Below are positions 11,230 to 29,242 of a DNA stretch of 64,000 bases, in pieces. Under the pieces are notes generated by a model. It saw nothing but the letters and a program-made list of their open reading frames with translations. It was not told the DNA's origin and did no database searches. Origin of the DNA: Gracilinema caldarium DSM 7334 (lineage in GTDB: Bacteria > Spirochaetota > Spirochaetia > Treponematales > Breznakiellaceae); the NCBI RefSeq assembly GCF_000219725.1, contig NC_015732.1, positions 2,484,972-2,548,971 on the forward strand, written 5' to 3'. Each line of letters opens with the position of its first letter. Position 1 is the stretch's first letter. The translations under genes and the position numbers were made by a program.

Positions 11230-11246
11230 ATTTATTCCTCTTATTG

Positions 11247-11300
11247 CGTTTTTATAAAAATACACGTACTCCTTAAATGTAAAGAGAAGTACGTGTATTT
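11247..11300. terminator. inverted repeat between the SBP gene and the alpha-galactosidase gene (internal terminator or processing hairpin)
   Basis: AAAATACACGTACT ... AGTACGTGTATTT form a 13-bp stem around a 16-nt loop. On the minus strand it is followed by TTTTATAAAA. Confidence 0.45.
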
Positions 11301-11312
11301 GTTTCTGATTAT

Positions 11313-12665
11313 TTATTTAAACAGATCAAGAATTTTTTTATTCGCGTCCTTAAGTCCAGCTTCAGGAGTCACCTTTCCGATAAAAATTGCATCGAAGGTC
11401 TGAGTCATTATTTCACTGATTTTTACTCCATTTTCAACGACTGGATATACAAAGGTACCATTTTTCTCATTAGCTTCATCTGTAAAGGCGGTTACATTGA
11501 TGTTTTTAGAAGTATATGCTTTTAATGCTTCATCAACACCAGCTTTGATTGCGGGGAATACAACTCCATAACTACCAACAATCTTCTGAGCCTCTTCTGA
11601 AGCGAGATATTTGACCCATTGCCAGGCTTCTTCTGGATGTTTTGTACCTACCCAAATAGAATCCGCAAGACCATTTATCATACTGCGTCGACCAACTGGC
11701 CCTACGGGAAGTTTGGCAAAACCAACCTTAAAGGGAGAACTGCTGGTATAATAGCCAATCATCCAGGAGCCATCGAATACTGTTGCAGCTTTTTTTGACG
11801 TAAAAAGTGAATTTGCTCCGTTTACAGTATCTTCATAGGAAGCCATATAGCCCTTTTTAGTGACCCTTACCATCCATTCAATTGTTTTAATAAAACGCGG
11901 ATCATCAAAATGGAAATTCGCATTGTACAGTCCATCCGTATACATCCATCCAGTACTAACGGCCAGAGGACTAAATTGTGCTTGCCCTCTGTCATCACTA
12001 TGATTTAATGCTATTCCATACTGAACTACATTATTTGCATCAAAACTGGGATCTAGACCATTTTTACCATTTTTATCGATAGAAAGTTTTGCGATAAATT
12101 TTTCAAAAGTTCCACCATCATTTGGATTCCAGGTTAATTCATTTGCTTCCTTTTCAGAAATTCCTGCAGCCTTTAGCATTTCCGCATTATAAACGATCGC
12201 AATAGTATCCCAATCTTTCGGAAGCCCATATCGCTTACCATCTTTTGTTGCCCAGAGTCCGGCTAAACCATTCATGTATATCGAAGTATCTACATTATCC
12301 CGCTTAACAAGAGGAGTAATGTCTACCAATTGTTTTTTTGAAGAAAAGTCCGGGTATTTTGCCAGGTGGTTCGTAAATACATCTGGAGCAGTACCGCTGA
12401 CCATATCGGTCTGCAGTGCAGTCCAATAATCCCCCCACCCTAATTGTTCAATTTTAATTTGAATGTTGGGATTTTTTGCCATAAAGCTTTCCGCAACTTT
12501 CTGATATGCGGGTAACTGATTCGCATCCCAGAGTACATATCGTATGGTAACTTTCCCACTACTTTTACTGGTACTCTGTTTTGCATCCTCACTGGTGCCT
12601 GAAGCAAACACCATACTGGATATGGCAATTGCCATAACCATTAAAACCAAGCTTCTCTTTTTCAT
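11313..12665 (-). CDS. extracellular solute-binding protein family 1 (CUT1 sugar ABC transporter SBP)
   Basis: Signal or lipoprotein-like N-terminus MKKRSLVLMVMAIAISSMVFASG. A GGAGGA RBS lies before the ATG at 12665. The fold matches MalE/MsmE-type oligosaccharide binders. Confidence 0.8.
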   Translation of the reverse strand: MKKRSLVLMVMAIAISSMVFASGTSEDAKQSTSKSSGKVTIRYVLWDANQLPAYQKVAESFMAKNPNIQIKIEQLGWGDYWTALQTDMVSGTAPDVFTNHLAKYPDFSSKKQLVDITPLVKRDNVDTSIYMNGLAGLWATKDGKRYGLPKDWDTIAIVYNAEMLKAAGISEKEANELTWNPNDGGTFEKFIAKLSIDKNGKNGLDPSFDANNVVQYGIALNHSDDRGQAQFSPLAVSTGWMYTDGLYNANFHFDDPRFIKTIEWMVRVTKKGYMASYEDTVNGANSLFTSKKAATVFDGSWMIGYYTSSSPFKVGFAKLPVGPVGRRSMINGLADSIWVGTKHPEEAWQWVKYLASEEAQKIVGSYGVVFPAIKAGVDEALKAYTSKNINVTAFTDEANEKNGTFVYPVVENGVKISEIMTQTFDAIFIGKVTPEAGLKDANKKILDLFK

Positions 12666-12721
12666 AAGCTTCTCCTCCAAAACCATATGTTATTCCAAGG
12701 GCCAGGCCCGGAATTTTCGAT

Positions 12722-13624
12722 TTAGCGGAACCCCGAAAAACCAATCGAATCTACTATTTTTCTTCCAAAAAGAATGAAAATACCGAAGGTAGGTATCATA
12801 GCCAGAGTAGTCCCTGCCATCATACCGCTCCAATCAGGCTGTCCTTGCGGTGTTTGCAACCGGAAAATTGCAAGCGCAACGGTAAGGGTTCGTATACTTT
12901 CTTTTTTACCCACAATTAGTGGCCACATATAATCATTCCATGCAGTGATAAAGGTGATTACCGCTAAAGTTGTCAGTGCAGTAGTACTAATCGGAAGAAT
13001 TACCTCAATAAATGTTTTCAAGTATCCAGCCCCATCAAGGTAGGCAGCTTCTTCCAATTCCTTGTTAATACGCAAAAAGAATTGTCTCAGAAAGAAAACG
13101 GCAAAAGGGGTCATCAGCAATGTTGGTGCCATAATCCCCCAATAAGAATTTAATAAGCCTAATTGCTTTACAAGGATAAAATTGGGAAGCATAGTGACAA
13201 TCCCTGGTATCATCAAAGTAGAGACATAGAGACTAAACAAATTATCACGAAATCTGAAATGCAGGCGGGCAAACGCATAGGCTGCCATAGAAGAAAATAA
13301 AACTTGAAAAAAGGTAACCCCTATTGAAACCAGAAATGAGTTATAAATATTTAAGAAGAAATTTACCTTCTGGCCGGAACCACCCATTTTTATTGCTGTT
13401 TCAGAATCAATTAATCCCAAAACGCGGGCATAATTTAACAAAGTAGCATGAGGTGGCCATAGTGCGGTAGGATTTGCAAAAACAGATTGTTGTGGTGCTA
13501 CGGATGTTCGAAAAACCCAATAAAATGGAAAAAGGGTTAAAAATAGAAATAAAACTACTATTATAAATACTGCCATTTTATATAACATGTTCGTTCTTTG
13601 GTTGATTGATAAGGAGTTCTTCAT
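12722..13624 (-). CDS. sugar ABC transporter permease (MalG/MsmG-like)
   Basis: Has the EAA-loop motif (EAAYLDGAGYLKTFIEVILP) and six predicted TM segments. Confidence 0.8.
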   Translation of the reverse strand: MKNSLSINQRTNMLYKMAVFIIVVLFLFLTLFPFYWVFRTSVAPQQSVFANPTALWPPHATLLNYARVLGLIDSETAIKMGGSGQKVNFFLNIYNSFLVSIGVTFFQVLFSSMAAYAFARLHFRFRDNLFSLYVSTLMIPGIVTMLPNFILVKQLGLLNSYWGIMAPTLLMTPFAVFFLRQFFLRINKELEEAAYLDGAGYLKTFIEVILPISTTALTTLAVITFITAWNDYMWPLIVGKKESIRTLTVALAIFRLQTPQGQPDWSGMMAGTTLAMIPTFGIFILFGRKIVDSIGFSGFR

Positions 13625-13636
13625 ATCTGTATTCCT

Positions 13637-14530
13637 TTAAAAGTCTGACTCATTTGCTCTGGACAATCGCATCTGCAAAAAGCTGATACCAATTAATATG
13701 AGGAAAAGGACCATCGAAACTGCAGTGGCATATCCCATACGATAACTTTCAAAACCATTTTTAAATATATACAAATAAATAACATACGTTGCGTTTACAG
13801 GCCCACCTTTTGTGGTAACCGCAATCGTATCGTATATTTGAAACGAACCAATAACAGAGGTAATGACAACAAAGGCAAGAACAGGTTTTAAGTAGGGGAT
13901 GAGAATTGTAAAAAATCGTTTCCAGGGGCCAGCACCATCAATTAATGCGGCTTCTTCGACTTCTTTAGGAAATCCTTGAATGCCTGCAAAAACAATTAAA
14001 GCCGTATATCCCATATGGCGCCAGATATTTATAGCTGCTACTGATGGTAACGATAGGGTATCAGAAAAAAGGAATGGAACAGATTTAAAACCGACAGCTT
14101 TAATTATTTCATTAATAATACCAATTGCGGGATCCATCATCCAGAGCCAAAGAAGGGCAACTACAACATTTGGTAACAACCATGGAATAAGAAACAAGCT
14201 TCTTACCAACACGGAAGAAGTAGATCGTTCCATAATCATGGCAAGCAGTAATGCTAAAACAGTTTGTATTGGTATATTCCAGAGGACATACTGAAACGTG
14301 ATAAAGAGAGAATGCCAGAAATCTGGATCAGTAATCAGTGCCTTATAATTTTTAAAACCAATAAATTCAGCCTTACTTAATAAATCCCAGTTTGTAAAAC
14401 TTAACCAAAAACCACGTAACGTAGGTACTAGGAAAAACATGCTGAATCCAATCAAGCTCGGGAAAATGAAGAAAAGGGCTATTATATGCTCTCTTGTGGT
14501 ATGTGATGAAACATTCTTTATGCCTTTCAT
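13637..14530 (-). CDS. sugar ABC transporter permease (MalF/MsmF-like)
   Basis: Has the EAA motif (EEAALIDGAGPWKRFFTILIPYLKP). An AGGAGG RBS lies 9 nt before the ATG at 14530. Confidence 0.8.
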   Translation of the reverse strand: MKGIKNVSSHTTREHIIALFFIFPSLIGFSMFFLVPTLRGFWLSFTNWDLLSKAEFIGFKNYKALITDPDFWHSLFITFQYVLWNIPIQTVLALLLAMIMERSTSSVLVRSLFLIPWLLPNVVVALLWLWMMDPAIGIINEIIKAVGFKSVPFLFSDTLSLPSVAAINIWRHMGYTALIVFAGIQGFPKEVEEAALIDGAGPWKRFFTILIPYLKPVLAFVVITSVIGSFQIYDTIAVTTKGGPVNATYVIYLYIFKNGFESYRMGYATAVSMVLFLILIGISFLQMRLSRANESDF

Positions 14531-14698
14531 CCTTTCACACCTCCTATTCAAAACTATACTACGATTTGTAAAATCTGTAAAGTTATAATGTAAATATTTT
14601 CTAATTATCTGAAATTTATTTCTATTATTTTAATTAATTCTCCATAATCATATATTTACAAGACCTTCACTTTAGATATAATTGGTTCAGAGAAAATT

Positions 14699-15703
14699 AT
14701 GACTATACAAGAAATAGCACTGGAAGCAGGTGTATCAACTGCAACTGTATCCCGAGTAATTAATAATCAGCCGGTAAGCAAAGAAAAGCGGGAATTGGTT
14801 GAGGGAGCGATTCGTCGCTTAAATTATTTGCCCGATGATCTGACTCGTAGACATTTGGGAACCCCCTACAAAGCTGTAGCTGTCCTAACCCATAGCATGA
14901 CTAATCCATATAGCATGGAGTTTGTTGAAACAATTATAGATAGATATGAAGAATTGGGGATAAATGTATATGTAAGCAGGAATGAAACTGCTGACATTGA
15001 GTATCGCTGCCTTGCGGATCTGCTTGCCCGGGGTGTTGAAGGCATTATTCTCCACGATCCACCTTTTAAAAACTACGAGACCGGCCTATTTACAAAGATT
15101 TCTGAACGATTACCCCTTGTTATTGTACATTCTTTTAATCAAGTTTTGGAAATGAATGAAGTTGTTGTGGACCAATACTACGGTATGAAAAAAGTAATGT
15201 CCCACCTCATCGGGCTTGGACACCGGGATATTCTGTTTCTCAGAAATAAAATTGGTTATTCATTAGATTTAAAAGAAAAAGTATGGAGAGAGGAACTTAC
15301 CCTGGCCGGGACGCCTCCAAAGGATAATTATGTATTAGTAATTCCTGATGCTGACAAAGAAGCAGGAATAAAAGAAACTGAAGATATTGTACGAGAGTTC
15401 TTTGTCTCGAATAAAAGGCCCACAGCAATATTTGCAGCCAATGATATGATGGGGGTAGGGGCACTTAATGTGATTAAAGAGCTTGGACTGAGAGTCCCGG
15501 AGGATATTTCTGTTATCAGTCATGACAATACAATGCTTGCCGCTAGTTATCATTTAAGCTCTGTGGACCTTAAAATTAAAAGTGTCGCCCATGCGGTCGT
15601 CGATTTAATGCAGTATGTTGTCAATGGCCACGATAAAGAGCCACGGAGAATCATGATCACCCCGGAGCTTATCCTCCGTGGTTCCACAGCGAAAATTGGA
15701 TAG
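14699..15703 (+). CDS. LacI family transcriptional regulator
   Basis: N-terminal HTH (MTIQEIALEAGVSTATVSRVINN) plus a periplasmic-binding-like effector domain. It is transcribed divergently from the ABC/alpha-galactosidase operon. Confidence 0.85.
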   Translation: MTIQEIALEAGVSTATVSRVINNQPVSKEKRELVEGAIRRLNYLPDDLTRRHLGTPYKAVAVLTHSMTNPYSMEFVETIIDRYEELGINVYVSRNETADIEYRCLADLLARGVEGIILHDPPFKNYETGLFTKISERLPLVIVHSFNQVLEMNEVVVDQYYGMKKVMSHLIGLGHRDILFLRNKIGYSLDLKEKVWREELTLAGTPPKDNYVLVIPDADKEAGIKETEDIVREFFVSNKRPTAIFAANDMMGVGALNVIKELGLRVPEDISVISHDNTMLAASYHLSSVDLKIKSVAHAVVDLMQYVVNGHDKEPRRIMITPELILRGSTAKIG

Positions 15704-15717
15704 TATATGTATTAGCT

Positions 15718-16752
15718 TTACACCGCGACCTTGATCGCTTCGCTCCTGCTGGCGGTGGCGGTAACGGGGACGTCATAAGCGGCCAAAATGGCATTCAGCC
15801 GGTTGATGAGCTCCTGCCGGGAATCCTTGAACCGGAACCCAACGGGAATAACCGCGGGCCGCCGCAGCTGTTCGAGGGAGGCGAGAAAGCGCGGTAAAAC
15901 TTTTCCGAGTTCCCGCACATCGTACACCATGAGGCCCCGGCCGCTTTGCTGGAGCATCCGGGCATTCAGTTCCTGTTCAGCCTGGCCTCGCTGGGGAATA
16001 GCCAGCACCGGTTTACCAAGAACCAGGGCTTCCGACAGGGTCTGGTGCCCCCCGTTGGTGATCACTGCGGTACAGTTCCGCAGGCCCTCATCAAAATCCG
16101 CCCCCGGTGCTGGATAAAGCCGGTAGGTTAAACCGGGAATCGCGTCCAGGAGGGGGAGAATGTCCTTGCGGCTTTCTATTTTTAGGTTTACCGCGAGGAA
16201 AGCCTCATTCCGAACCGGTTTGGCAAGCAAGGCCTTGCGCAGTACAGGCCCGATATCGCCTCCGAAAAATGACACATGGAGCCGCCAATCCCAGGGGCCT
16301 TCCATCATAAACGCTACCAGGGCGGCCACCCAGGTTCGGGGGTCCAGAGTAAGATACCGGCGGATGATGCCGGGATGATTCATCTGAATGACTGGTATGC
16401 CCACGAGCCGGGCAGCCCAGGGCAGATAGGGATCGAAATCGGAGAGCACCGCCTGAATCCGGTCCTTTACCAACTGACGGGAGAGCCGCTTTATGGCAGG
16501 AAAAAAATGCAGGGCCTGTCTCAGGCTATAAAAAACAGTACGAATATACTCTACACGGTTTTTATTTTTTATAAAGGTAAAACAGGGTATACTGCGCACT
16601 GCCGCCCGGGGTAAGCGGGATGCAACAAAGGCCGACACTGTTTCAGGTATATACAACAGTACCTCATGATACTGCTTAAGGTCATCATACAGGGCGACCA
16701 TCCGGCCCGCATGTCCGAATCCTTCCCCAGCACAGGAATAGGCTATACGCAT
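15718..16752 (-). CDS. glycosyltransferase, GT-B fold (MGT/GT1/GT28-like UDP-glycosyltransferase)
   Basis: The N-terminal GEGFGHAGR motif and C-terminal ITNGGHQTLSEALVLGKPVLAIPQRGQAEQELNA resemble the GT1 donor-binding signature. Confidence 0.65.
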   Translation of the reverse strand: MRIAYSCAGEGFGHAGRMVALYDDLKQYHEVLLYIPETVSAFVASRLPRAAVRSIPCFTFIKNKNRVEYIRTVFYSLRQALHFFPAIKRLSRQLVKDRIQAVLSDFDPYLPWAARLVGIPVIQMNHPGIIRRYLTLDPRTWVAALVAFMMEGPWDWRLHVSFFGGDIGPVLRKALLAKPVRNEAFLAVNLKIESRKDILPLLDAIPGLTYRLYPAPGADFDEGLRNCTAVITNGGHQTLSEALVLGKPVLAIPQRGQAEQELNARMLQQSGRGLMVYDVRELGKVLPRFLASLEQLRRPAVIPVGFRFKDSRQELINRLNAILAAYDVPVTATASRSEAIKVAV

Positions 16753-16861
16753 AGGAGTACCTCCATGCTAAGGTTCGCCTATGGATGTTAAAAAAGGCCT
16801 AAAAAAGTATTAGAATTATATAAAAAGTTCCGCTCCTTGAGACTTCTGCCAGGAGGTTTCC

Positions 16862-18289
16862 ATGAAATATGCCTTTGAAAGAAAATCACCCTGGGTCTTT
16901 GAACTCCCCCGAAAGGGCCCCATGCAGGTGCCCCTGCGGCTCTATACCACCGAAGGGATGCTGAAACAGCTCGAAGAAGACCAATCCATAGACCAGTTGA
17001 TGAACGTCGCGAGTCTCCCCGGCATTTACCGGTATGCCCTGGGCATGCCCGACATGCACCAGGGCTTTGGCTTCCCCATCGGTGCGGTCGCCGCCTTTGA
17101 CATCGACTCGGGGATCATTTCCCCCGGCGGTGTGGGCTTTGATATTAACTGCGGGGTGCGGCTCCTGCGAACCGGTTTAAGCCGCCAGGCCATCGAAGAC
17201 CGTCTGGATGAACTGGGGAAAAGGCTCTTCGCCCTTGTGCCCAGCGGTGTGGGTTCAACGGGACACAGGGTCTTCAGCAAGGCTGAGATGAAAGGGCTCC
17301 TCAGCGAAGGTGCCCCCTGGATTATTTCAGCAGGTTTCGGTGTTCCTTCTGATCAGTCAGCCATGGAAAGCCAGGGGCACCTTGCGGCCGCCGATGCGGA
17401 ACTGGTGAGTGAAAAGGCTATTGAGCGGGGCCGGGATGAACTTGGCACCCTGGGGGCGGGGAACCATTTCCTCGAGGTCGATTACATCGAAACTATCTAC
17501 GATGCGGAATATGCCGCGGCCTTTGGGCTACGGGAACATGACATTGTGGTCTGGATACACACCGGCTCCCGGGGCTTAGGCCACCAGGTCGCCACGGATT
17601 TCATCAACCTGTTTAAGAAAAAGATGGACCAATACAAGATACCCCTGTACAACCACGAACTCGCGGCCCTACCCTTTAAAACCAGCGAAGGCCGCCAGTA
17701 TTTTGCTGCCATGTCCGCGGCGGCAAATTATGCCTGGGTGAACCGGCAGATCATTACCCACCAGGTCAGGACCGCCTTTGAGCAGGTCTATCCAGACCTC
17801 ATGGCGGGACAGAGCATCGACCTCATCTACGATGTGGCCCACAACATTGCCAAGGAGGAGGTCCACGACGGAAAAAAACTACTGGTCCATCGCAAGGGCG
17901 GCACCCGGGCATTCCCGGCGGGGCATCCTGAATTGGAGGGGCCCTTCGCCCAATATGGACAGCCGGTTCTCCTTCCGGGGGACATGAAGCGGGGCAGTTA
18001 CATTCTTGTAGGTACCGGGGCCAGTATGGATGAAACCTTCGGCAGTACCGCCCATGGGGCGGGCCGCCGCTTAAGCCGGAACGAGGCGGTGCGGCGCTAC
18101 CAGTTCGAGGACATCAGCGCGGATATGGCCCAGCATCACATTAGGCTCTTTGCGGCGGACAAAAAGGTTGCCCGGGAAGAGGCCCCCGATGCGTATAAAA
18201 ATGTGGATGAAGTAGTGGGCCCCATAGTCCATGCAGGCATTGCCCGCCCCGTTGCCCGTTCCCGGCCCCTCTTGGTAATTAAGGGGTGA
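16862..18289 (+). CDS. rtcB: RNA-splicing ligase RtcB
   Basis: Carries the conserved RtcB metal-binding core (PDMHQGFGFPIGAVAAFD, GVGFDINCGVRLLRT) and the HxG nucleotidylation region. An AGGAGG RBS precedes the start. Confidence 0.85.
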   Translation: MKYAFERKSPWVFELPRKGPMQVPLRLYTTEGMLKQLEEDQSIDQLMNVASLPGIYRYALGMPDMHQGFGFPIGAVAAFDIDSGIISPGGVGFDINCGVRLLRTGLSRQAIEDRLDELGKRLFALVPSGVGSTGHRVFSKAEMKGLLSEGAPWIISAGFGVPSDQSAMESQGHLAAADAELVSEKAIERGRDELGTLGAGNHFLEVDYIETIYDAEYAAAFGLREHDIVVWIHTGSRGLGHQVATDFINLFKKKMDQYKIPLYNHELAALPFKTSEGRQYFAAMSAAANYAWVNRQIITHQVRTAFEQVYPDLMAGQSIDLIYDVAHNIAKEEVHDGKKLLVHRKGGTRAFPAGHPELEGPFAQYGQPVLLPGDMKRGSYILVGTGASMDETFGSTAHGAGRRLSRNEAVRRYQFEDISADMAQHHIRLFAADKKVAREEAPDAYKNVDEVVGPIVHAGIARPVARSRPLLVIKG

Positions 18290-18316
18290 GCAGGGTCAGA
18301 GACCCCATGGTGACCA

Positions 18317-19924
18317 TTACCCTCCATCAATAAAAAAGCCCAGACTCTTTGCAACAGAAAGAAATTTTTGTTCATCCTGTAATGAGACAACAATTTTGTT
18401 GCCTTCGACCAGACTGTAAAGGGGCCTTATTTTTTCATTCTGCAATAAAGCATAAACTTCGGGGCTGGCATTTGTAAGATCATAAAGCAAGGCCCGTTGT
18501 GGGCTTTTAAGTACCCCAAACCGAGATTTAAGGTTTCTAAAAAACTCGTTCCACCGCACAGAAGGTTCCGGGGAAATAAGTTGTTTAAACTTGTTTATTC
18601 TCATTTCTACTTGTTTATACGTGGTACAAGCCCGCATAAAAGAAATTTCATCAATCTTATATCTATCGGGGCCCAAAGGATTGCCTATTTGTTCCAAAAA
18701 AAGTTTATGCCCCAGAGATTTACCCCGAAAAGTTACTAAAAGCAGATCCTTATCTGCCAGAGCTTCGTAAGAGGTCTGAGATTGGGTTTCATACTCATCG
18801 ATAAGACCCAGACAATAGGCACCCAATTTAGTCACCCGGACCATAAAAAGGCCATCAAATCTGGAGATGATCCTATCCTTGCCATTATAGTGTAGCGGTT
18901 TTGGGGGTTCTTTTTCACTAATTTCTACTAAACCCAAGAGGGCCAAGAGATACCAATAACCTTTAAAAAGCGGGAGCCCCATCAAAAGGTGGCTTTGAGG
19001 GCCCCACACATAGATGATTCGTTGATAATCTGAGTTTAGAAGAGCATCCTCTTCGCCTATATCGATGTACTCAGCCCTACAAAACAGGCTATACTTCTCT
19101 ATGTACGGGTCTGCATAGGTAAATCTGTAGCCTCGAACATAGAGGGTTTTATACAGTGATTCTACAGAAAACCACCGTTGTGCCTTGGCGCATTCGACAA
19201 AAACATGCCAGAATAGGGATCTACAATCGGGGGCCTTAGCTGAAATGCGGGCACTGTTAACCTGACGGAATGAAAGATGTTCAGTAAGTACAGCAAATTC
19301 AAAAAAACTGCCCAGGGGATCATCCAATTTATAAAATGTTTTTTCTGGATTAAAAAATCGAGGAACTATTTTTCTTAAGATCTGTGGAACAGTACCATCT
19401 TGTTCAGTAAAGTCTGACTGCACCGATTGATACCAGCGAACAAATAGTTCTATTGGATCAAGCCCATGGATTTTACTAAGGGGAAATTCTCCCTGACCGC
19501 AGAGGGGTCGTATACTTTTAATTTCAGTTTTTGTCAGGCCGCTTTCCATCAATCCCCGAGAATATTTACGTTCGTCATGTAATACATCTTTAGATACCTG
19601 GATAAGCAAAGACAAATTATCCACAATAGTGGTTTCATTAGACCAAACATCGGTTGGTGCCTCCATAAGTTCCTGAAAAGAATATTCCGGAGGTTTTTTC
19701 ATATACCCTATAAACAGACTACGAAATAGTTCGTAAAGATATAAATACTTATTTTGAACAACAGTAAAGAGACTCAGAGCTGGCTCTAACTCTATTAGGT
19801 ACTGCGATGGTTCATACAGAGCAATTTCATTGTGCAGGTCTTCATCAATTTCATACTTTTTAAACAATGTTTCAAAATTTACAAAGCCCCAGAATACACC
19901 CACATATCGGTTTGGTTTGACCAA
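18317..19924 (-). CDS. hypothetical 535-aa region, probably the C-terminal extension of the adjacent SNF2-family helicase pseudogene (no recognisable domain)
   Basis: It has no ATG start; the track uses TTG. It overlaps the 3' end of the helicase_C ORF by 52 nt in the +1 frame, which is consistent with a single ancestral gene broken by a frameshift. Confidence 0.35.
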   Translation of the reverse strand: MVKPNRYVGVFWGFVNFETLFKKYEIDEDLHNEIALYEPSQYLIELEPALSLFTVVQNKYLYLYELFRSLFIGYMKKPPEYSFQELMEAPTDVWSNETTIVDNLSLLIQVSKDVLHDERKYSRGLMESGLTKTEIKSIRPLCGQGEFPLSKIHGLDPIELFVRWYQSVQSDFTEQDGTVPQILRKIVPRFFNPEKTFYKLDDPLGSFFEFAVLTEHLSFRQVNSARISAKAPDCRSLFWHVFVECAKAQRWFSVESLYKTLYVRGYRFTYADPYIEKYSLFCRAEYIDIGEEDALLNSDYQRIIYVWGPQSHLLMGLPLFKGYWYLLALLGLVEISEKEPPKPLHYNGKDRIISRFDGLFMVRVTKLGAYCLGLIDEYETQSQTSYEALADKDLLLVTFRGKSLGHKLFLEQIGNPLGPDRYKIDEISFMRACTTYKQVEMRINKFKQLISPEPSVRWNEFFRNLKSRFGVLKSPQRALLYDLTNASPEVYALLQNEKIRPLYSLVEGNKIVVSLQDEQKFLSVAKSLGFFIDGG

Positions 19925-20690
19925 TTCGATGCACCCGGTCTATTGCCTGAGCTTCAGCGGCTCGATTCCACCAGGGGTCAAAAATAAAAACATAATCCGC
20001 AGCGGTCAGATTAAGACCCACCCCACCGGTTTTCAGTGTCATAATAAGAACCTTTACTTCCGGATCAGTCTGAAAGCGCTGAACCAATGCCTGCCGATCT
20101 ACGGTGGCTCCAGTCATAACCAAATTCGCCAGCCCTCGCTTGGACAGATCTTCCGAAAGTAAATCTACCGTCGCAAGGAAATTGGTAAAGACCAGACATT
20201 TGTGTCCCTCTGCTGAAAGGTTTTCCACCATATCCAGAAAATATTCCCGTTTTGCTGAAATACCGTTGTAGTTATCATCAGCTTCCGGAATACCTGCTAA
20301 ACGCCGTAAACGGGTCATGGCTTTAAGCAGTCTGAACAAACCCTTTGCAGTTTCCCCGGATGAGAAGGCCTCTTGCACAGCCCGCAATTCCTCTTCTCGG
20401 ATCTGGTGATATAATTCTAGATGGTCCTGGTCTAATTCGATTATTACTGTCTGCTCGGTTTTACTGGGCAAATCTTTGAGCACATCGGTCTTCATCCGAC
20501 GCAAGATAAATGGATAAATTTTTAGCCGTAGTTCCCGACTTACTGGTTCTTCGCTATTTTATATGGGTAAGTACCCCAGTTTACCAGCGATCCGGTAAAT
20601 AATAAGCTTAAACCTGAATCCGTATAAAAAATAAAGTAACCCAAGCCAACCTGATGGTGTATAATGAATTACCACTAAAACAAAATGCAC
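19872..20690 (-). pseudogene. SNF2/RapA-family helicase remnant: Helicase_C domain and degraded upstream sequence; SNF2_N ATPase domain missing
   Basis: The product has the SNF2 C-terminal motifs (KIYPFILRRMKTDVLKDLPSK, LVFTNF, TGGVGLNLTAADYVFIFDPWWNRAAEAQAIDRVHRIGQ). An in-frame stop lies just upstream. The N-terminal motor domain is absent and the sequence abuts a transposase remnant. Confidence 0.7.
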
Positions 20691-20699
20691 CCAAGAGGT

Positions 20700-21299
20700 G
20701 AAGCTTGGATTACGTCATAAATACTACCACAGAAAAATTAAATAGCATAGGCGGAATGGCGCTGGTAGGAAAAATACTAGAAAAAGGGGAAAAAGCCTGC
20801 TGGAGATGCATCGCTTCCTGATATTGATATTATTTTTCAGGTTACTGAAACACGTATAACCAAAGATGGGACACCCTTACTGTTTCCGGAGATAGACATT
20901 GAAACCTTCTGGACGAATCTGTATGAAAGCCCTGAAACAGTAATCGATCTCTATCATGAACATGGTACCTCGGAACAGTTCCACAGTGAGTTGAAATCAG
21001 ATATGAACGTTGAACGCTTGCCTTCGGGGAAGTTTGTGGTAAATGCCATCCTGCTGAAACTCGCCATGCTGTCGTTCAATATCTTGCGATTTATCGGCCA
21101 GACATCGCTTGCTTTCCCGGATGCACTTCCCTATAAAACAGATTCTAAAAGAAAGCGTCTACGAAAAGTCATTGATGACTTGATTCGTGTTGCGGTAAAG
21201 ATTGTGAGACACGCCAGACAGACCTGTATCCGGTTGTGGGAACAAGATCCCTGGCTTGCTTGTTTCAAACAGGTCTATAGCGTCTGCTGTAATCTATAA
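20700..21299 (+). pseudogene. IS1380-family-like transposase remnant (N-terminal and C-terminal pieces, internally deleted and frameshifted)
   Basis: The translation has an N-terminus-like TTEKLNSIGGMALVGKILEKG, followed out of frame by C-terminal motifs YHEHGTSEQFHSELKSDMNVERLPSGKFVVNAILLKLAMLSFNIL. Confidence 0.55.
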
Positions 21300-21443
21300 T
21301 TTTTTTTGCTCTTTTTCAGCTAAATTCTGGAAGCAGCCTTCTCTTAAAAGATTTTCTCCCTTACTTTGTGGGCTGTTTTTATGCTTCTTTTCCTTGGTTA
21401 CTGCTAATTTGGATGGTTTTATACGGATTTAGGTTTAAATAAA

Positions 21444-21731
21444 AAACCTACAGCAATATTTGCTGCTAATGATATAATAGGTGTAGGGGCACTTAATGCA
21501 ATTAAAGATCTTGGATTAAGAGTTCCGGAGGATATTTCTGTCATAAGTCATGACAATACGATGCTTGCTGCTAGTTACCATTTAAGTTCGGTGGACCTTA
21601 AAATTAAAAGTGTGGCCCATGCGGTTGTCGATTTAATGCAGTATGTTGTCAATGGCCATGACAAAGAGCCACGGAGAATCATGATCACCCCAGATATCAT
21701 TCTTCGCGGCTCAACAGCTAAGACTATATAA
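21444..21731 (+). pseudogene. 3' fragment of a LacI-family regulator gene (paralog of 14699..15703)
   Basis: About 88% nucleotide identity to 15421-15703. It encodes KPTAIFAANDIIGVGALNAIKDLGLRVPEDISVISHDNTMLAASYHLSSVDLKIKSVAHAVVDLMQYVVNGHDKEPRRIMITPDIILRG. The HTH and N-terminal two thirds are missing. Confidence 0.8.
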
Positions 21732-21846
21732 GAACGTTTCTAAAATTGAATTATTTTTTTTAGACATAGGAGCAAATGTTTGCAGAGTTGGCTTAAAAGT
21801 TTAAAAAACTGCTAAAAATCAAAAATTTTGTCCTCTCCATAATATA

Positions 21847-22179
21847 CTACTACACCGCAGCCTTGACCGCTTCATCAGTCTTGCTGGGAACAAAAGTACA
21901 GTATGTTGCAAGTATACAATTTAGCCGATCTAGCAACTCTTTCTGGGAATCCTTAAAGCTGAACCCCACAGGGATGACCGCAGGCCTTCATCAAAATTAG
22001 CCCCCGGCGCGGGATAAAGCCGGTAGCGTAGACCGGGAATTGCATCTAATATGGGGAGAATCTCCTTGCGGCTTTCCACCTTAAGATTTACCGCCAGGAA
22101 CCCCTCATCCCGTACCGGTTTGGATAGCAGGGCCTTCCTCAGTACCGGTCCTATATCTCCACCGAAAAATGAAACATAG
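21847..22179 (-). pseudogene. 3' portion of a glycosyltransferase paralog (copy of 15718..16752), internally deleted and truncated by the IS insertion
   Basis: Homology to the intact GT resumes after a ~260-bp internal deletion. It ends at the IS left boundary. Confidence 0.75.
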
Positions 22180-23827
22180 GGCTTCCTGAAAAACAAACAA
22201 CTCTTTACAAAAGAAGCAAATACAGAGATAATCTCAATAAGAAGTGCACGGAAGAAAGGGGTAAGGCCTTAAAAAGCGTGCACTTTACTATGGGGTAACG
22301 ATGTATAAGGAAAAGGAACAGGTACCTGAGTTTGAAGACTTTTATGTACCCTTCGGAGGACATTTACGAGAAGATAATCGATGGGTACGATTAGCCGCAA
22401 TTATTCCATGGGAAGAGATAGAAGCTGAATATAAAAAATGTTTTTCAAAACGAATTGGAAGAACAGCCAAGACCGTACGGCTCGCCTTGGGATCATTATT
22501 GATAAAAGAGAAATTACAATTAACAGATGAAGAAACGGTAGAAACAATACGAGAGAACCATTACCTGCAATATTTTTTAGGATATGAATCTTACAAAGAT
22601 GAAAAACCCTTTGATCCAAGCATGATGGTTCATTTTCGAAAACGGCTTGGACCTGATGCAATAGCAAAGATAAATGAGTTGATAGCGAAACGGTATCAAG
22701 AACAGGTAGAAGCAGAATCTGAAAAAAAACAGAACAAAAAAAACCAAAAGGATGACCATGATCATGGAAATCGAGGGCAACTCATTATAGATGCCACGTG
22801 CGTCCCCCAGGATATCCGGCATCCCCATGATGTCACTTTATTGGATGAAGCGCGAAGGAAAACAGAAAAGATAATTGATACGTTATATGAAGCGAGTGAG
22901 CTCACCATAAAACCACGAACCTATAGAAAACAGGCCCGTATCAAATATCTCAATTTTATACGAGGGCGACGAAGAACAAAAAAAGAAATACGCAGAGCGA
23001 TTCGGACCCAACTCCAATACATACGACGTAATTTACGGACTATCAATGAATTACAAAACAAGGTTCCCAGTACAACGTTGAGTGCAAAACAGCGACGTGA
23101 TCTTATCGTGATACATGAGGTTTACCGGCAACAGGTACAGATGTATAAGGGAAAGACCCATTCGATATCGGGAAAAATCGTCAGTATCAGTCAACCCCAT
23201 GTACGACCAATAGCCCGAGGTAAAGCAAAAGCGGCCTTTGAATTCGGAGCAAAACTATCAGCATCGATGACCGAACACGGGATGATTTTTATAGATCGAT
23301 TACAATGGGAACCCTATAACGAACAAGAAGATTTGCCAACACAAATAGAAAAATATAAGAGGCGATGTGGTCGATATCCGGAATCGGTGCATGCCGATAA
23401 AATATATCGGACACGAGCAAACCGAGCCTATTGTGAAGCTCGAGGAATACGATTGTCTGGACCACCCTTAGGCAGACCGATTAAAGAAACATTAGAGAAT
23501 AAAAAGATAGTACGACAGCTACGAAAGATTCAAAGACTTGACGAAGCCATTCGACAAGCGATTGAAGGTGGCTTTGGATATATGAAACGAAAGTTTGGTC
23601 TTGGTACAATCTATGAAAAATTACGCGAAACTAGTGAAACAGCAATCATGGTATGTGTATTGCTGACCAACTGTGAAAAGATCCTGAGGGATCTTTTTAT
23701 GCGCTTTTTATTTTTACTTGGTTTTAAACCTCATAAATCATATTTGAAAGTTTTAGTATACTAAATTAAACCCATTTTAACGTAAAAAAGTTTTGAAATA
23801 TCATTTTTAGACATTTTCAGTAGGCCC
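22180..23827 (+). mobile_element. insertion sequence, 1648 bp, with imperfect ~13-bp terminal inverted repeats and a 7-bp target duplication AACATAG (IS5/IS1182-superfamily-like DDE transposase)
   Basis: Left end GGCTTCCTGAAA, right end TTTCAGTAGGCC. AACATAG appears at 22173-22179 and 23828-23834. It splits a GT paralog whose halves lie on either side. A second copy lies at 60647..62293. Confidence 0.8.
22301..23764 (+). CDS. DDE transposase, 487 aa (InsH-like N-terminal domain, IS5/IS1182-like)
   Basis: Intact ORF inside the IS. The N-terminal region (RWVRLAAIIPWEEIEAEYKKCF, HYLQYFLGYESY) resembles the transposase InsH N-terminal domain. Confidence 0.75.
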   Translation: MYKEKEQVPEFEDFYVPFGGHLREDNRWVRLAAIIPWEEIEAEYKKCFSKRIGRTAKTVRLALGSLLIKEKLQLTDEETVETIRENHYLQYFLGYESYKDEKPFDPSMMVHFRKRLGPDAIAKINELIAKRYQEQVEAESEKKQNKKNQKDDHDHGNRGQLIIDATCVPQDIRHPHDVTLLDEARRKTEKIIDTLYEASELTIKPRTYRKQARIKYLNFIRGRRRTKKEIRRAIRTQLQYIRRNLRTINELQNKVPSTTLSAKQRRDLIVIHEVYRQQVQMYKGKTHSISGKIVSISQPHVRPIARGKAKAAFEFGAKLSASMTEHGMIFIDRLQWEPYNEQEDLPTQIEKYKRRCGRYPESVHADKIYRTRANRAYCEARGIRLSGPPLGRPIKETLENKKIVRQLRKIQRLDEAIRQAIEGGFGYMKRKFGLGTIYEKLRETSETAIMVCVLLTNCEKILRDLFMRFLFLLGFKPHKSYLKVLVY

Positions 23828-23834
23828 AACATAG

Positions 23835-24307
23835 AGTCGTTTGTCCCAGGGGCCTTCCATCATGCAAGCTACCAGGGCAGCCACCCAGGTTCGAGGATCC
23901 ATAGTCAGGTAGCGGCGGATGATTCCGGGATGATTCATCTGAATGACCGGAATTCCCGCAAGCCGGGCAGCCCAGGGCAGATAGGGATCAAAATCGGAGA
24001 GGACCGCCTGAATACGATCCTTTACCAACTGCCTGCTTATGCGTTTTATAGTTGGGTAAAAATGCAGAGCCAAGCGAAGACTGTGAAATATGGTGCGGAT
24101 ATATTCAACGCGGTTTTTATTTTTAATAAATGTAAAACAGGGAATGGACCGCACTGTGGCACGGGGCAGGCGGGAGGTAACAAAGGACGACACGGTCTCG
24201 GGTATATACAACAAAACTTCATGATACTGTTTCAGATCATCATACAGGGCGACCATCCGGCCGGCATGACCGAATCCTTCTCCTGCACAAGAATAGGCTA
24301 TACGCAT
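23835..24307 (-). pseudogene. 5' portion of the glycosyltransferase paralog split by the IS
   Basis: Encodes MRIAYSCAGEGFGHAGRMVALYDDLKQYHEVLLYIPETV..., near-identical to the N-terminal half of the 15718..16752 product. It ends at the IS right boundary and TSD. Confidence 0.8.
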
Positions 24308-24415
24308 GGAATAACTCCATGCTAACGTTCGCCTAAGGATGTTAAAAAACACCTAAAAACGTATTAGAATTATATAAAAAGTGTTGCTCCATAATCCTTC
24401 TGTAAGGAGGTCTCG

Positions 24416-24790
24416 ATGAACTATCCCTTTGAAAAACTATCCCCCTGGGCTTTTGAACTCCCCCGCTAGGGGCCCATGCAGGTACCCCTGCGGCTCTATA
24501 CCACTGAAAACATGCTGAAACAGCTTAAAGAAGATTAATCCATAGACCAGTTGATGAACGTCGCAAGCCTCTCTGGCATTTACCGGTATGCTCTGGGCAT
24601 GCCCGACATGCACCAGGGCTTCGGGTTCCCGGCGGGACATCTAGAATTGGAGGAGCCTTTCGAACAGTATGGGCAGCCGGTCCTGTTTCAGGGGGATATA
24701 AAGCGAGGCAGTTACTTTCTTGTTGATACCGATTGATACCGAGGCCAGTATGGATGAAACCTTCGGCAGTACTGCCCCTGGCTCGTTCCC
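24416..24790 (+). pseudogene. rtcB paralog remnant (in-frame stops, ~870-bp and ~200-bp internal deletions)
   Basis: Matches the N-terminus of RtcB but with TAG and TAA stops (FELPR*GPMQ, LKED*SID). It then jumps to C-terminal HLELEEPFEQYGQPVLFQGDIKRGSY. The divergent intergenic region is conserved with 16753-16861. Confidence 0.8.
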
Positions 24791-24805
24791 GGCCCCTGTT
24801 GGTAA

Positions 24806-25897
24806 TTAAGGAGTAAGTACTTTTGTCAGGAAATGGGCTGGAGGCTCCCAGGCATAGTCGCCATATCCACCTGCCAGAAGCCAGGTAGAAGGAATAGCCC
24901 GATCTCGCAGGAAGGAAAAAACCGTCATGTCCCGTTTTACACAGGTATCGAGGGGTAGTTGTAAATCAACAGAGGAAGGCAGTTCATCCTTTTCATAGGG
25001 GTCAGCGCCATCAACCACGATGGCGAGATCCGGTTTTTTACCACCTGAAAGCATTTCAAGCTGAAGAAGCCCAGAGGCAAGGCGGGATACATAGGACGCT
25101 TGATCTTCTTTCGATACAGGAATATCTACATCAGAAGCCACCAGCGGGGCTCTGCTGGGAACTGCATGAGCTAATGTTTCCGGGTCGAGAGGCCAACCTA
25201 AAGCCATGTGTATGGAGAGGGTCAGTATACAAGGATCACCAGAAGCAAGCTCTGCTGTACCGTCTCCCTTATGAGCATCGAGATCAATAATCCATATTGA
25301 TGAAATGAGTCCTTCCGCTTTAAGCCTCCGGGCTGCGATAATAATGTCATTGAGAAGGCAGAAACCTGCACCGGAATCGTAGCGGGCATGGTGCATTCCA
25401 CCGCCTAAATAGTAGCAAAAACCCGGATTGGAATTATTTGTAGACAATGGTTCAGAACTTACACCGGAAGGTTTGCTACGATGAGCCAGAGCTAAACGGC
25501 AGGCGAGATAGGTTCCCCAGACCTGGGCCCGGATCGTGGTAAAAAGCTCTGAAAGGGGTCGCACCGCATCACCAGGGCTGTATCGCCTAAACCTTCCCTG
25601 TTCATCCATCAATTCATAGGTCTTGATAAGTTCTTTTTCGAGCCCTTCACCGAACAGCGCTGCCACAAAGTTGGCATCATGTGCCCTGGCAATATCTTCC
25701 CGACTAATATGTCGGTCTCCTTCGGGAATAGAGAGCATATCCGCAGCTGATGCAAGCGAGTGTACAGGCCGCATGGGTGGTATTATCTTTTTTTTAAGAT
25801 ACTCAAGTACTGCCAAGGCCCGCCGATCCCGTATCGGGATTTGAATCCCATAATCGGGGAATCGCATATCAAGAGCAGGATCGTACAGCAAAATCAT
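24806..25897 (-). CDS. histone deacetylase superfamily protein (AcuC/AphA-like, arginase-deacetylase fold)
   Basis: Carries the HDAC motifs YYLGGGMHHARYDSGAGFCLLND and WIIDLDAHKGDGT. The ATG at 25897 (MILLYDP) is preferred over the longer TTG-initiated track ORF, but has no clear RBS; TTG at 25942 remains an alternative. Confidence 0.75.
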   Translation of the reverse strand: MILLYDPALDMRFPDYGIQIPIRDRRALAVLEYLKKKIIPPMRPVHSLASAADMLSIPEGDRHISREDIARAHDANFVAALFGEGLEKELIKTYELMDEQGRFRRYSPGDAVRPLSELFTTIRAQVWGTYLACRLALAHRSKPSGVSSEPLSTNNSNPGFCYYLGGGMHHARYDSGAGFCLLNDIIIAARRLKAEGLISSIWIIDLDAHKGDGTAELASGDPCILTLSIHMALGWPLDPETLAHAVPSRAPLVASDVDIPVSKEDQASYVSRLASGLLQLEMLSGGKKPDLAIVVDGADPYEKDELPSSVDLQLPLDTCVKRDMTVFSFLRDRAIPSTWLLAGGYGDYAWEPPAHFLTKVLTP

Positions 25898-25902
25898 AGG
25901 AT

Positions 25903-27183
25903 CTAAAAACGCATCACTAACTTGAGCGTCATTTCTACCCAATACCCCACATGGGCAGGCCCCAATTCACCATACCAACCAGAGGGATACAACATTGTCA
26001 TATCTACTGGTATTTTATTCACAAGACTGACTGTAGTTCCTTGGAAAAGGGTATGATCAATATTGAATGAACACAAAAACGAGCCATCCTCAAGCGCGAT
26101 AAGAGCATTACTACCCAGCATGGTATAATCATCAATTTTATAAATCCCGTTCACTATAAAATAATGCATCCGATTCAAATCACCTAACGGAAGGTTTACA
26201 TTAAAAGACCGCTGTTCAGGTACTGTGTTGATCCAATCTTTTGTATATAGCATATCTATACTATCTTGTGAAACCAGTGCACTTCCACCATTGTACCAAT
26301 ATTGACTGGTAATGATGAACATTCCATCGTTGATAGAAAAATCTAAACCTATTGCAGCTTCAAGGCCTCGATACCAAATCCAGTCTCTGGTATAATAGGT
26401 TTGTGTATGCAACCAATGCATATCAAGGGTATATAAAGCATCAAAAACGATTGAAACCGGTCCATCATATTTTATAGAGCTACCGAAACGATGTAGAGGT
26501 TCATTGGTTGCATCTCGAAGTGTGACAGATCCAACCTTCATTGCAGGTCTACCAGCTTGAATTGCATAGAGCCCTTGCACACTCCAATGATTTCCGTGGT
26601 GTTCTGACACTATACCAGCTAGACTGGTTCTCCCATTCGTTTCAGTTGTATCATAAGGTCCGGTCCCAAAGAAACTCATTTTTAGAGTATCCATCGGGTA
26701 CCAGTTACAAACAAGCCCAAGAATACCCCGAGGTCGAGCATCGGGATTTCGTGGATTTGGATGGATAAGAAAATCGGTAGGGCGAAATAGTTGCCCAAAT
26801 CCAAAGGATAATCTAAGAATTCCCATATCTGTTGCAAAGGAATCGCCCTTGATTTGGTAATATAAACGATCTACATCTATAGTACTGGAATAGAAAGAAT
26901 CAGTATTATTTTCATTTACCTCATTTGAACTACCACTTTGAATATAAAGGTTAACTGAAGATATAAAAATCCCTCGGTCTCCTACTGGGGCTTTCATCCT
27001 TAGATTGGCATACTGTTCTATTCCAAATAAATTATTTGAAGTCTCATTATAACCATATCCCCAGGAAGAACGTACAAGAGATTCACTCATACCGCTCCAT
27101 TGCCAATCTGAAGCTACTGAATATGGAATAGAAATTATAAAAATAAAACCTACTATAAATAGAAATACACGCCAATATTTCAT
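25903..27183 (-). CDS. putative outer membrane beta-barrel protein
   Basis: N-terminal signal sequence, many alternating aromatic/hydrophilic stretches, and a C-terminal ...KLVMRF ending in Phe as in OMP sorting signals. It overlaps the LolA-like gene by 4 nt. Confidence 0.55.
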   Translation of the reverse strand: MKYWRVFLFIVGFIFIISIPYSVASDWQWSGMSESLVRSSWGYGYNETSNNLFGIEQYANLRMKAPVGDRGIFISSVNLYIQSGSSNEVNENNTDSFYSSTIDVDRLYYQIKGDSFATDMGILRLSFGFGQLFRPTDFLIHPNPRNPDARPRGILGLVCNWYPMDTLKMSFFGTGPYDTTETNGRTSLAGIVSEHHGNHWSVQGLYAIQAGRPAMKVGSVTLRDATNEPLHRFGSSIKYDGPVSIVFDALYTLDMHWLHTQTYYTRDWIWYRGLEAAIGLDFSINDGMFIITSQYWYNGGSALVSQDSIDMLYTKDWINTVPEQRSFNVNLPLGDLNRMHYFIVNGIYKIDDYTMLGSNALIALEDGSFLCSFNIDHTLFQGTTVSLVNKIPVDMTMLYPSGWYGELGPAHVGYWVEMTLKLVMRF

Positions 27184-27938
27184 CGTTCAAGATTCCTCAT
27201 ACTAAATAAGGTATCATCTATAGGTTTGTCTAAAACAACATTAGACATTTTCAGAACCGTTCGACTCCCCTTTCTCAGAAGATCTCTCATTTCAAATTCT
27301 ATCGGAAACCGTCTATTTCCAATTTGTTCAATCTTATGCAAGGTATACTCTTTCAACTTTGCACCTGAAAGTGCATACTGCTCAGTCTTTAATACATCTC
27401 CTGTTTGGATATCTACCCATATCTTTTGTTTTGGATAGCTTTCAGTTTTTTTATTAGCTAATAATTCGAGAACCCAAGCATCTCTATTATTTATAGACTC
27501 TTTACCAAGCAATGTAGGAGTATACCGAACCGATAATTTCTCATTTTCAATTGTATCTTCATAAGAAAAATCGGAACCCATCATAGATTCTTTAAGCATA
27601 TGACCAGAAATCAGCATAACCGATTCAGTATCTGGTGAATACACATAGAGACGGCCTTCACGTTTTAAATATCTGGTATCCCGATCTTCAGGATTATAAA
27701 ATTCAACAAAACTTAGTTGATTACCCTTTGCCCAAGCTTTAAACAATTTAACAAAACGCTTCCCCTGGTATTCAATAATCATTTCACCCGTATAGTGAAT
27801 ACTATCATATACTTCATTCGCATCAATCTGGGCCAATAGCTGCTTTGGATCCGGGCTTTGATGTTGTGCATACATGGCAGAAAATTTTACAAAGAAAATC
27901 AGCAATATAACGAGTACAAACCTTGTTTTATATTTCAT
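27180..27938 (-). CDS. LolA-like outer-membrane lipoprotein-sorting protein family member (periplasmic, signal peptide)
   Basis: Has a signal peptide MKYKTRFVLVILLIFFVKFSAMYAQ. Size and sequence resemble LolA-like proteins that accompany FtsX/MacB-type ABC exporters. Confidence 0.5.
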   Translation of the reverse strand: MKYKTRFVLVILLIFFVKFSAMYAQHQSPDPKQLLAQIDANEVYDSIHYTGEMIIEYQGKRFVKLFKAWAKGNQLSFVEFYNPEDRDTRYLKREGRLYVYSPDTESVMLISGHMLKESMMGSDFSYEDTIENEKLSVRYTPTLLGKESINNRDAWVLELLANKKTESYPKQKIWVDIQTGDVLKTEQYALSGAKLKEYTLHKIEQIGNRRFPIEFEMRDLLRKGSRTVLKMSNVVLDKPIDDTLFSMRNLER

Positions 27939-27976
27939 AATGTTCCTCCCTTAATCACGGTTCTATTAAAGACATC

Positions 27977-29233: not shown

Positions 29234-29242
29234 AATCTCATC

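Follow-up and report, generated by a model that had tools for sequence, protein, structure and literature searches.

How does a chromosome come to carry, a few kilobases from an intact gene block, a second and damaged version of the same block that differs from it at 12-20% of positions? The question is raised by a stretch of 64,000 nt, here called the window, from Gracilinema caldarium DSM 7334 (formerly Spirochaeta/Treponema caldaria), a hot-spring spirochaete (contig NC_015732.1, positions 2,484,972 to 2,548,971). Copy A (15410-18290) and copy B (21438-24817) each hold the 3' end of a lacI gene, a glycosyltransferase (GT) gene and a gene for the RNA ligase RtcB. A reading made from the letters alone (the sequence-only reading) had described them as a segmental duplication of the lacI(3') block with one copy decaying in place, and had offered as its source either an old duplication or a related lineage. 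We judge that copy B is probably a homeologous allele from a related lineage that recombined beside the resident copy A, and is not a paralogue of A. The literature that we searched holds no description of the lacI-GT-RtcB locus, nor of a GT-RtcB association.

The collinearity that had been claimed, with the same order and orientation, holds almost to the base. Alignment of A and B by blastn gives five segments, all on the same strand, at 79.5-87.7% identity and with E-values down to 0: 15410-15693 with 21438-21721 (87.7%, gapless), 16078-16277 with 21978-22177 (82.0%), 16289-17076 with 23844-24630 (84.1%), 17912-18057 with 24626-24781 (79.5%) and 18248-18290 with 24775-24817 (86.0%). The divergence of about 12% quoted earlier therefore applies to lacI and the 5' part of RtcB, and elsewhere it is 16-20%. 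The parts of the two copies are as follows, with lengths of proteins in amino acids (aa) and IS standing for insertion sequence.

14699-15703, plus strand: lacI_A, intact gene for the LacI-family repressor of the GH36/ABC sugar cassette next to it (Pfam LacI and Peripla_BP_3)
15718-16752, minus strand: GT_A, intact 344-aa glycosyltransferase (PF13528, MJ1255/VC2487-like), 97-98% identical in nucleotides to sister strains
16753-16861, no strand: divergent intergenic region of A, 109 nt, with the rtcB promoter and, for GT as well as rtcB, a GGAGG ribosome-binding site
16862-18289, plus strand: RtcB_A, intact 475-aa RNA ligase (PF01139, 536 bits, profile positions 1-426 of 426)
21438-21731, plus strand: lacI_B 3' fragment, 97 codons, open, whose first codon, 238, directly adjoins the right inverted repeat of an IS1380 element
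21919-22179, minus strand: GT_B 3'-proximal fragments, with an internal deletion of ~220 nt (A 15861-16077 gone)
22180-23827, plus strand: IS5-family insertion in GT_B, 1648 bp, whose transposase gene (487 aa, 22301-23764) is intact
23835-24307, minus strand: GT_B 5' fragment, 154 codons, open, 83% identical to GT_A in nucleotides and 92% in amino acids
24308-24415, no strand: intergenic/promoter region of B, 84% identical to that of A, promoter core kept
24416-24817, plus strand: RtcB_B remnant with two stops, two deletions and a 10-nt tandem duplication, codons ~73-350 gone

Selective signature and tree position of copy B

The simplest account of such a pair would be that a duplication inside this genome, possibly by way of IS1380, gave rise to a second lacI 3'-GT-RtcB block, and that the spare copy then drifted neutrally to 12-18% divergence. 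The collinear copies, the truncation of lacI at the boundary of the copy and the IS1380 element at its edge are what this account would lead one to expect, and the pattern of substitutions is not. The two lacI ends differ at 2, 2 and 31 first, second and third codon positions (third positions, 31/35), with a ratio of non-synonymous to synonymous divergence (omega) of 0.05 and a synonymous divergence (dS) of 0.66, and lacI_B is free of stops and frameshifts across its 97 codons. Because purifying selection cannot act on a lacI fragment that lacks the 5' end, the lacI divergence predates the truncation. The other genes have the same character: omega between A and B is 0.055 for the 5' fragment of GT, 0.098 for the 66 aligned codons of its 3'-proximal part and 0.17-0.18 for RtcB, and dS between the copies is 0.4-1.0 overall. 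On these codon patterns, nearly all of the divergence of B arose inside an intact, selected locus, and its decay is recent.

The phylogenetic position of B is equally hard to reconcile with duplication and drift in place. Over the 306 codons retained by B, to which all of the following identities and trees refer, GT of B is 82.6% identical to A and 82.3, 82.4 and 82.0% identical to the loci L022, L164 and L021 of related genomes. Those three and A are 86-99% identical to one another, so that A is nearer to the three other lineages (86-91%) than it is to B. Neighbour-joining trees place A, L022 and L164 together without B in 999/1000 bootstraps with all sites, 972 with third positions and 939 with first plus second positions, and a sister grouping of A with B is found in no more than 14/1000. 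Quartet site patterns agree, 22-28 favouring the grouping of A, L022 and L164 without B versus 8-10. Neutral drift within the genome thus has very little probability, and with it falls the earlier claim of a block duplicated and decaying where it stands; of the two sources first proposed, it is the related lineage that agrees with the data.

The length of the branch leading to B bears on how long the copy has been without function. Changes polarised with the outgroup number 92 on B versus 41 on A, with 54 from G or C to A or T versus 14 in the opposite direction. This 2.2-fold longer, AT-biased branch was at one stage read as pseudogene decay, a view that we revised: it reflects mostly the deeper attachment of B. 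The Jukes-Cantor distance to the outgroup L006 is 0.282 for B and 0.254-0.279 for A, L022 and L164, which leaves B an excess of only ~0.01-0.03 substitutions per site, and true pseudogene decay is therefore thin and recent. Gene conversion between A and B was also considered, and is not significant: among the 28 sites at which A differs from its sister, A equals B at 16 and the sister equals B at 8.

A deep branch and purifying selection in both copies are also what would follow if the whole lacI-GT-RtcB locus had been duplicated in tandem before A, L021, L022 and L164 radiated, with one copy lately inactivated in DSM 7334; the adjacency of the copies, in the same order and orientation, fits this too. 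The distribution of the locus speaks the other way. It is single copy in L003, L006, L009, L011, L021, L022, L024, L164 and the sister strains, so that many losses would be needed, and the cousins that would descend from the duplicated ancestor lack the lacI cassette. A GT profile scan of reference genomes (70 loci, in spirochaetes and two planctomycetes, 59 of them with at least 1.7 kb of upstream sequence) found two loci in 0/70 genomes. Identical tandem repeats are, moreover, unstable and prone to gene conversion. We regard this ancient paralogy as improbable.

Resident allele, junctions and order of events

Copy A belongs where it stands. Metagenome contigs of sister strains (L012-L014 and L017-L020) are 97-99% identical to the window over the left flank, lacI, GT_A, the intergenic region and the beginning of RtcB_A, in an unbroken run at 4700-16647, and B is only 81-87% identical to the sister strains. 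The sister strains occur in hot-spring metagenomes (JGI 3300045916, 3300038988, 3300038975 and 3300007072). For lacI_A the identity to L017-L020 is 98.9% in the 5' part and 97.6% in the 3' part. A chimera joined at 15410 had been suspected for lacI_A from the GC content of third codon positions (GC3; 0.33 in the 5' part, 0.45 in the 3' part of A, 0.31 in that of B), and was rejected as there is no break relative to the sister strains. Compared with L021, A is 90% and B 82% identical, with a backbone at 91.6% on the left (1-9026) and 93.5% at FucI (33098-33775). Since A matches both the sister strains and the backbone, it is the resident allele; the tree position of B is incongruent with the flanking backbone, as expected of a xenologue.

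Throughout the clade this backbone reads FucI-(variable)-HDAC-RtcB-GT-(variable), with the locus in single copy in all relatives sampled. The DNA between the copies and to the right of B contains these features:

18317-19906, minus strand: orf535 remnant, codons ~82-610 of a 610-aa protein, first ~81 codons gone
19906-20544, minus strand: fragment of an SNF2-family helicase gene, missing both ends (Helicase_C, SNF2-rel_dom; DpdE/ZorD-like PADLOC matches)
20545-20607, no strand: ISL3-family terminal fragment, 63 nt, 98.4% identical to the end of the ISL3 found inside GT of the sister strains L017-L020
20608-21438, plus strand: internally deleted IS1380-family element, 831 bp, with inverted repeats of 22 nt at 95% complementarity; its right end is the start of copy B
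24806-25897, minus strand: HDAC-family gene (PF00850), its 3' end overlapping that of RtcB_B by 12 nt

The 3.1 kb that separate A from B thus consist of dead genes and IS scars. In L021 an intact cassette of an SNF2 helicase and a 610-aa protein lies between HDAC and GT (5107-9821), and the two dead genes of the window are its remains: orf535 has 88.6% amino-acid identity to residues 82-608 of the 610-aa open reading frame (ORF) of L021, and the helicase fragment is 96.1% identical to L021 7176-7814, part of an intact 955-aa gene. A deletion of ~418 nt relative to L021 fuses the two pieces, with the junction near 19906. The helicase gene is severed at 20545 by the 63-nt ISL3 end, and this ISL3 stub abuts the IS1380 remnant. 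Neither Pfam nor PADLOC gives a match for orf535 or the 610-aa protein; together with the helicase it could form an uncharacterised defence-type pair.

The IS1380-family remnant noted earlier at the left edge of the copy is indeed there. Of its transposase only the C-terminal ~80 aa are left (NF033539, 62 bits versus a cutoff of 180; PF13701, 28.7 versus 34.7), and it lacks a target-site duplication (TSD), as its flanks ...AAGC and ATAAA... differ. On this structure it fits a deleted derivative sitting at a recombination joint, and the suggestion that it mediated the event is plausible, since the TSD is missing.

At the other end, the 12-nt overlap between HDAC and RtcB is also found in L006, L022 and L164; it is the ancestral junction, and it is B that holds it. 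To its right, 24779-33262 (8.5 kb) carries HDAC, orf426 (annotated as a porin), a TP_0789-like lipoprotein-sorting protein, MacB/FtsX, ABC, Band7 and GntR genes. This block is collinear with L006/L007 at 83.7%, and is not present in L021, L022 and L164, which have E1-E2 dehydrogenase genes or nothing at that place. It is closer to L006 than are GT and RtcB (77-78%), and may itself have been exchanged. Protein clusters at 90% contain DSM 7334 only for HDAC, orf426, the TP_0789-like protein and MacB, and include the sister strains for LacI, GT_A and RtcB_A, an asymmetry that hints weakly at a cassette from HDAC to GntR arriving with B. HDAC had also been considered as a marker of a foreign flank and proved uninformative, with 59-75% amino-acid identity among all lineages.

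We infer the direction and mechanics of the recombination from this anatomy. DNA of a related, Gracilinema-like lineage would have recombined into the DSM 7334 chromosome, one end being anchored by homology on the HDAC/FucI side, so as to preserve the RtcB-HDAC junction; the 8.5-kb HDAC-to-GntR cassette may have entered together with B. The other end would have been joined through an IS, by recombination between two IS1380 elements or by an IS-associated deletion; in the process lacI_B would have lost its 5' two thirds, and the SNF2 gene next to it its 5' part. With A supplying LacI, GT and RtcB, the redundant B would then have been eroded by the deletion in GT, the very recent IS5-family insertion and the stops and deletions in RtcB.

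Other alleles at the locus show that such traffic is not confined to DSM 7334. GT of L021 and L022 is 98.6% identical and yet has unrelated flanks on both sides, and in L017 a lacI and GT that are 97-98% DSM 7334-like stand beside an RtcB 5' part (13440-13835, 396 nt) that is 99.4-100% identical to L022. From these mosaics we conclude that allele exchange is routine at the locus.

Several points weigh against an origin of B in a related lineage. A donor of B type is absent from all collections searched, in which nothing is closer to B than A is. The sister contigs end inside GT or RtcB, short of the position of B and the HDAC-to-GntR block, and a metagenome scan with HDAC for the right flank of the sister strains returned homologues at no more than 67% identity. 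A lacI gene adjoins GT only in the A-type G. caldarium strains and in B, and not in L021, L022 and L164; this pattern is awkward for a B that branches outside the clade, and requires either loss of the cassette or its exchange between lineages. Finally, long-branch effects could pull B outward in the tree, against which the tree from third positions only and the equidistance of B from the other alleles argue.

The order of events could also have been the reverse, with B and its right flank replacing the native allele, IS1380 striking lacI, and A then being re-imported from a sister strain. Through crossovers between homologous DNA of the left flank and of IS1380, the re-import would have brought in the segment from the left flank through SNF2'::ISL3::IS1380 and restored function. 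Such a sequence would explain why the ancestral RtcB-HDAC junction is found in B, A being followed by a cassette instead, and an IS1380 with mismatched flanks is the expected residue of recombination between two ISs; as A and its left flank are 98% identical to the sister strains, a recent import would be invisible. It demands, however, two transfers rather than one, and shows no step in identity over 4700-16647 against L017. The SNF2 plus 610-aa cassette beside RtcB_A is, besides, shared with L021 at the same position, which points to an inherited arrangement. We consider both this order and the re-import route unlikely, while giving them some weight.

Because the joint passes through IS sequences that lack a TSD, and B-type sequence is known from the DSM 7334 genome alone, one might suspect that the assembly was wrongly joined at an IS repeat or mixes in a contaminating related strain. 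The genome, however, is of finished quality: its assembly drew on a paired-end library of 12 kb and on Illumina reads at 283x, and gaps were closed by PCR (PMC3739177). With copies 12-20% apart, the collapse or expansion of a repeat is no concern. The outer flanks on either side belong to a single syntenic backbone, and the protein of the GT_B fragment occurs in an independent Logan assembly. The IS5 in B, moreover, has a 99.8% identical twin in another part of the window, so that B resides in the genome. An artefact is accordingly most improbable.

The process that we favour, addition of a homeologous allele beside the resident one, has a known relative. Homology-facilitated illegitimate recombination, or additive integration of homeologous DNA, is described for naturally transformable bacteria. 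It resembles the event proposed here in that one end is anchored by homology and the other joined without it, and in that foreign DNA, here an insert 12-18% diverged, is added beside the resident allele and does not replace it. The present join differs in running through an ISL3 end and a deleted IS1380; an IS may have taken the place of microhomology. Tandem duplication followed by pseudogenisation would likewise give two copies that are collinear, point the same way and lie a few kilobases apart, one of them with stops, deletions and an IS. In contrast to such a case, A and B are not closest relatives and their divergence is selective rather than neutral, and no junction joins the end of one unit to the start of the next, 3.1 kb of dead genes and IS scars lying in between. 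In rearrangements by IS1380 (ISEcp1-like) elements, an IS with both inverted repeats is left at the breakpoint with no target duplication, as after IS-IS recombination or adjacent deletion, and this is also the case here. Differences are that the present element is an 831-bp deleted derivative with no intact transposase, that the 5-bp duplication around a transposition unit, as in one-ended mobilisation by ISEcp1, is absent, and that lacI_A is intact and in frame.

The feature is, then, an ordinary relic of recombination and IS activity, of a sort already known, and no new type of system. Its interest lies mainly in showing that a second copy that is diverged and bears lesions need not stem from an old duplication. 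A recently acquired homeologous allele can be told from a decayed paralogue by a tree of sister lineages together with the spread of differences over codon positions in a fragment that could never have worked. It also documents recombination between lineages, and activity of IS5-family, ISL3 and IS1380 elements, at a single locus of a hot-spring spirochaete, and it hints at a hot spot where alleles and cassettes are exchanged and RtcB is repeatedly lost.

Lesions of copy B and gene content of copy A

Copy B was described from the outset as decaying and split by an IS, and its lacI truncation, GT deletion, IS insertion and RtcB stops and deletions bear this out. Its lacI lacks the 5' two thirds, as stated (the first 237 of 334 codons are gone), and of lacI_A the last 294 nt alone (15410-15703) recur in copy B. 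The internal deletion in GT_B is real and measures ~217-226 nt, not the ~260 bp first given. Between the stop of lacI_B and the 3' end of GT_B lies an AT-rich spacer (21732-21850, ~115 nt), where copy A has 14 nt. The RtcB copy contains the in-frame TAG (24467-24469) and TAA (24536-24538) that had been reported, and the two large deletions, of 835 nt (A 17077-17911, with TTCCC microhomology) and 190 nt (A 18058-18247). No metal ligands are left in RtcB_B, and proline stands at the position of the guanylylated histidine. As had been said, the intergenic promoter region is conserved between the copies.

The IS inside GT_B, with its own 7-bp target duplication, was likewise read correctly. It is an IS5-family element (NF033578, 430 bits versus a cutoff of 275) with ends GGCTTCCTGAAAA... 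and ...CAGTAGGCCC, bounded by AACATAG at 22173-22179 and 23828-23834; once the IS and one of the repeats are taken out, the sequence is again collinear with A. A twin lies in the same window:

60647-62293, plus strand: second IS5-family copy, 99.8% identical, with TSD TATATAG at 60640-60646 and 62294-62300

The two differ at 3 of 1660 positions. In the twin a poly-A tract shorter by 1 nt frameshifts the transposase into ORFs of 162 and 307 aa, and it is the copy in the pseudogene that is intact. Two nearly identical copies, each with its own TSD, mean that the element has been active very recently. In the sister strains L017-L020 it is an ISL3 element, with a DDE_Tnp_ISL3 transposase and the 8-bp TSD GTTTCAGG, that splits GT.

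The genes of copy A are all intact. The products of lacI_A, GT_A and RtcB_A are identical in sequence to WP_013969624, WP_013969625 and WP_013969626, respectively; an exact look-up of RtcB_A returned no contig. GT_A scores 103.8 bits with PF13528, above the cutoff of 25, and its best subfamily is TIGR00661 (MJ1255/VC2487), at 122 bits and under that profile's cutoff of 195.9. The name 'MGT-like' that it was first given does not suit it, TIGR01426 yielding only 23.9 bits versus a cutoff of 260.

RtcB_A aligns over its whole length with Pyrococcus horikoshii RtcB (1uc2, E 6e-151), and its motifs DINC, GNHF, HTGSRGLGHQ, VAHNI and STAHGAGR align with those of that protein. We take these motifs to provide the metal-binding Asp, Cys and His residues and the guanylylated His, in line with the residue roles in the P. 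horikoshii structure. Judged by this alignment, RtcB_A is predicted to be a full-length, catalytically complete ligase. Its setting can be compared with the Escherichia coli rtcBA/RtcR operon, with which it shares a full-length RtcB; unlike there, no RtcA or RtcR adjoins it, the neighbours being a divergent PF13528 GT and, in relatives, a convergent HDAC-family gene. Also unlike there, the promoter is plainly sigma70-like, with no obvious sigma54/RtcR arrangement: a promoter scan and an alignment of 11 lineages identify TTAAAA, a 17-nt spacer and TAGAAT at 16788-16816. The conserved intergenic core was considered as a regulatory RNA and rejected, as Rfam gives nothing above noise and the promoter and ribosome-binding sites explain the sequence.

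GT_A and RtcB_A are GC-rich (56-58% GC, GC3 0.62-0.68) versus a neighbourhood of ~38% GC. A recent transfer of these genes, which this might have marked, was rejected because GT, RtcB and HDAC are likewise GC-rich in relatives; in L006, RtcB has a GC3 of 0.62 versus 0.26-0.39 in its neighbours.

The GT-RtcB pairing and neighbouring features

The preservation of the divergent GT-RtcB pair in both copies had been taken as a hint that the two genes are functionally linked, with co-occurrence across genomes as the check. In the scan described above, RtcB lies within 8 kb of GT in 2/59 loci, both from the Gracilinema-like clade at 77% GT identity, and in 0/53 of the loci in which GT is less than 55% identical. 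Nor were matches to Mbeg1-like, DUF1722, SurE, FucI or JetD proteins found near GT in 69 loci. Within the clade the genes have been lost independently: L003, L009 and L021 have GT without RtcB, and L024 and L025 have RtcB without GT. The pair is kept in both A and B because these are homologous copies of one ancestral locus. On the distribution of these genes, their pairing appears as shallow shared synteny, with no evidence of joint function, and the tempting inference that GT works with RtcB is thereby removed. Adjacency of HDAC to RtcB was not found outside the close clade in the metagenome HDAC scan.

Of RtcB, L003/L005 retain a 3' stub of 255 nt, L021 retains 62 nt of the 5' end and L026/L027 retain pieces of 42-46 aa, to which the remnant in B is to be added. 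RtcB has thus been cut to differing small stubs independently at least four times, with the promoter region and the neighbours kept. GT and RtcB both look dispensable in nature, GT being absent from L024/L025 and split by ISL3 in L017-L020.

In L006/L007/L008 a complete Wadjet system (JetABCD; 11058-17576) adjoins GT, and the GT-distal side resembles a variable island. One might imagine that the locus is a recombination hot spot at which thermophilic Gracilinema-like lineages living together swap alleles and defence-like cassettes, such as JetABCD in L006 and the SNF2 plus 610-aa pair in L021 and the window, and that RtcB is under conflict-driven, fluctuating selection. RtcB would then be, for example, an RNA-repair factor that hampers or opposes nearby RNA-targeting defence or toxin systems, and copy B would be a snapshot of the turnover of alleles and cassettes. 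We offer this as a conjecture that we doubt.

To the left of copy A, 9040-15703 forms a sugar-utilisation cassette of a GH36 alpha-galactosidase, a solute-binding protein, two permeases and lacI, which relative to L021, L011 and L024 is an insertion between a BPD_transp_2 ABC operon and GT. Comparison of the window with itself also aligns 3411-4162 with 4492-5231 (68% identical), inside neighbouring periplasmic-binding-protein genes that are probably paralogues, and reveals a 36-nt repeat at 42732-42767 and 57501-57536 with 92% identity.

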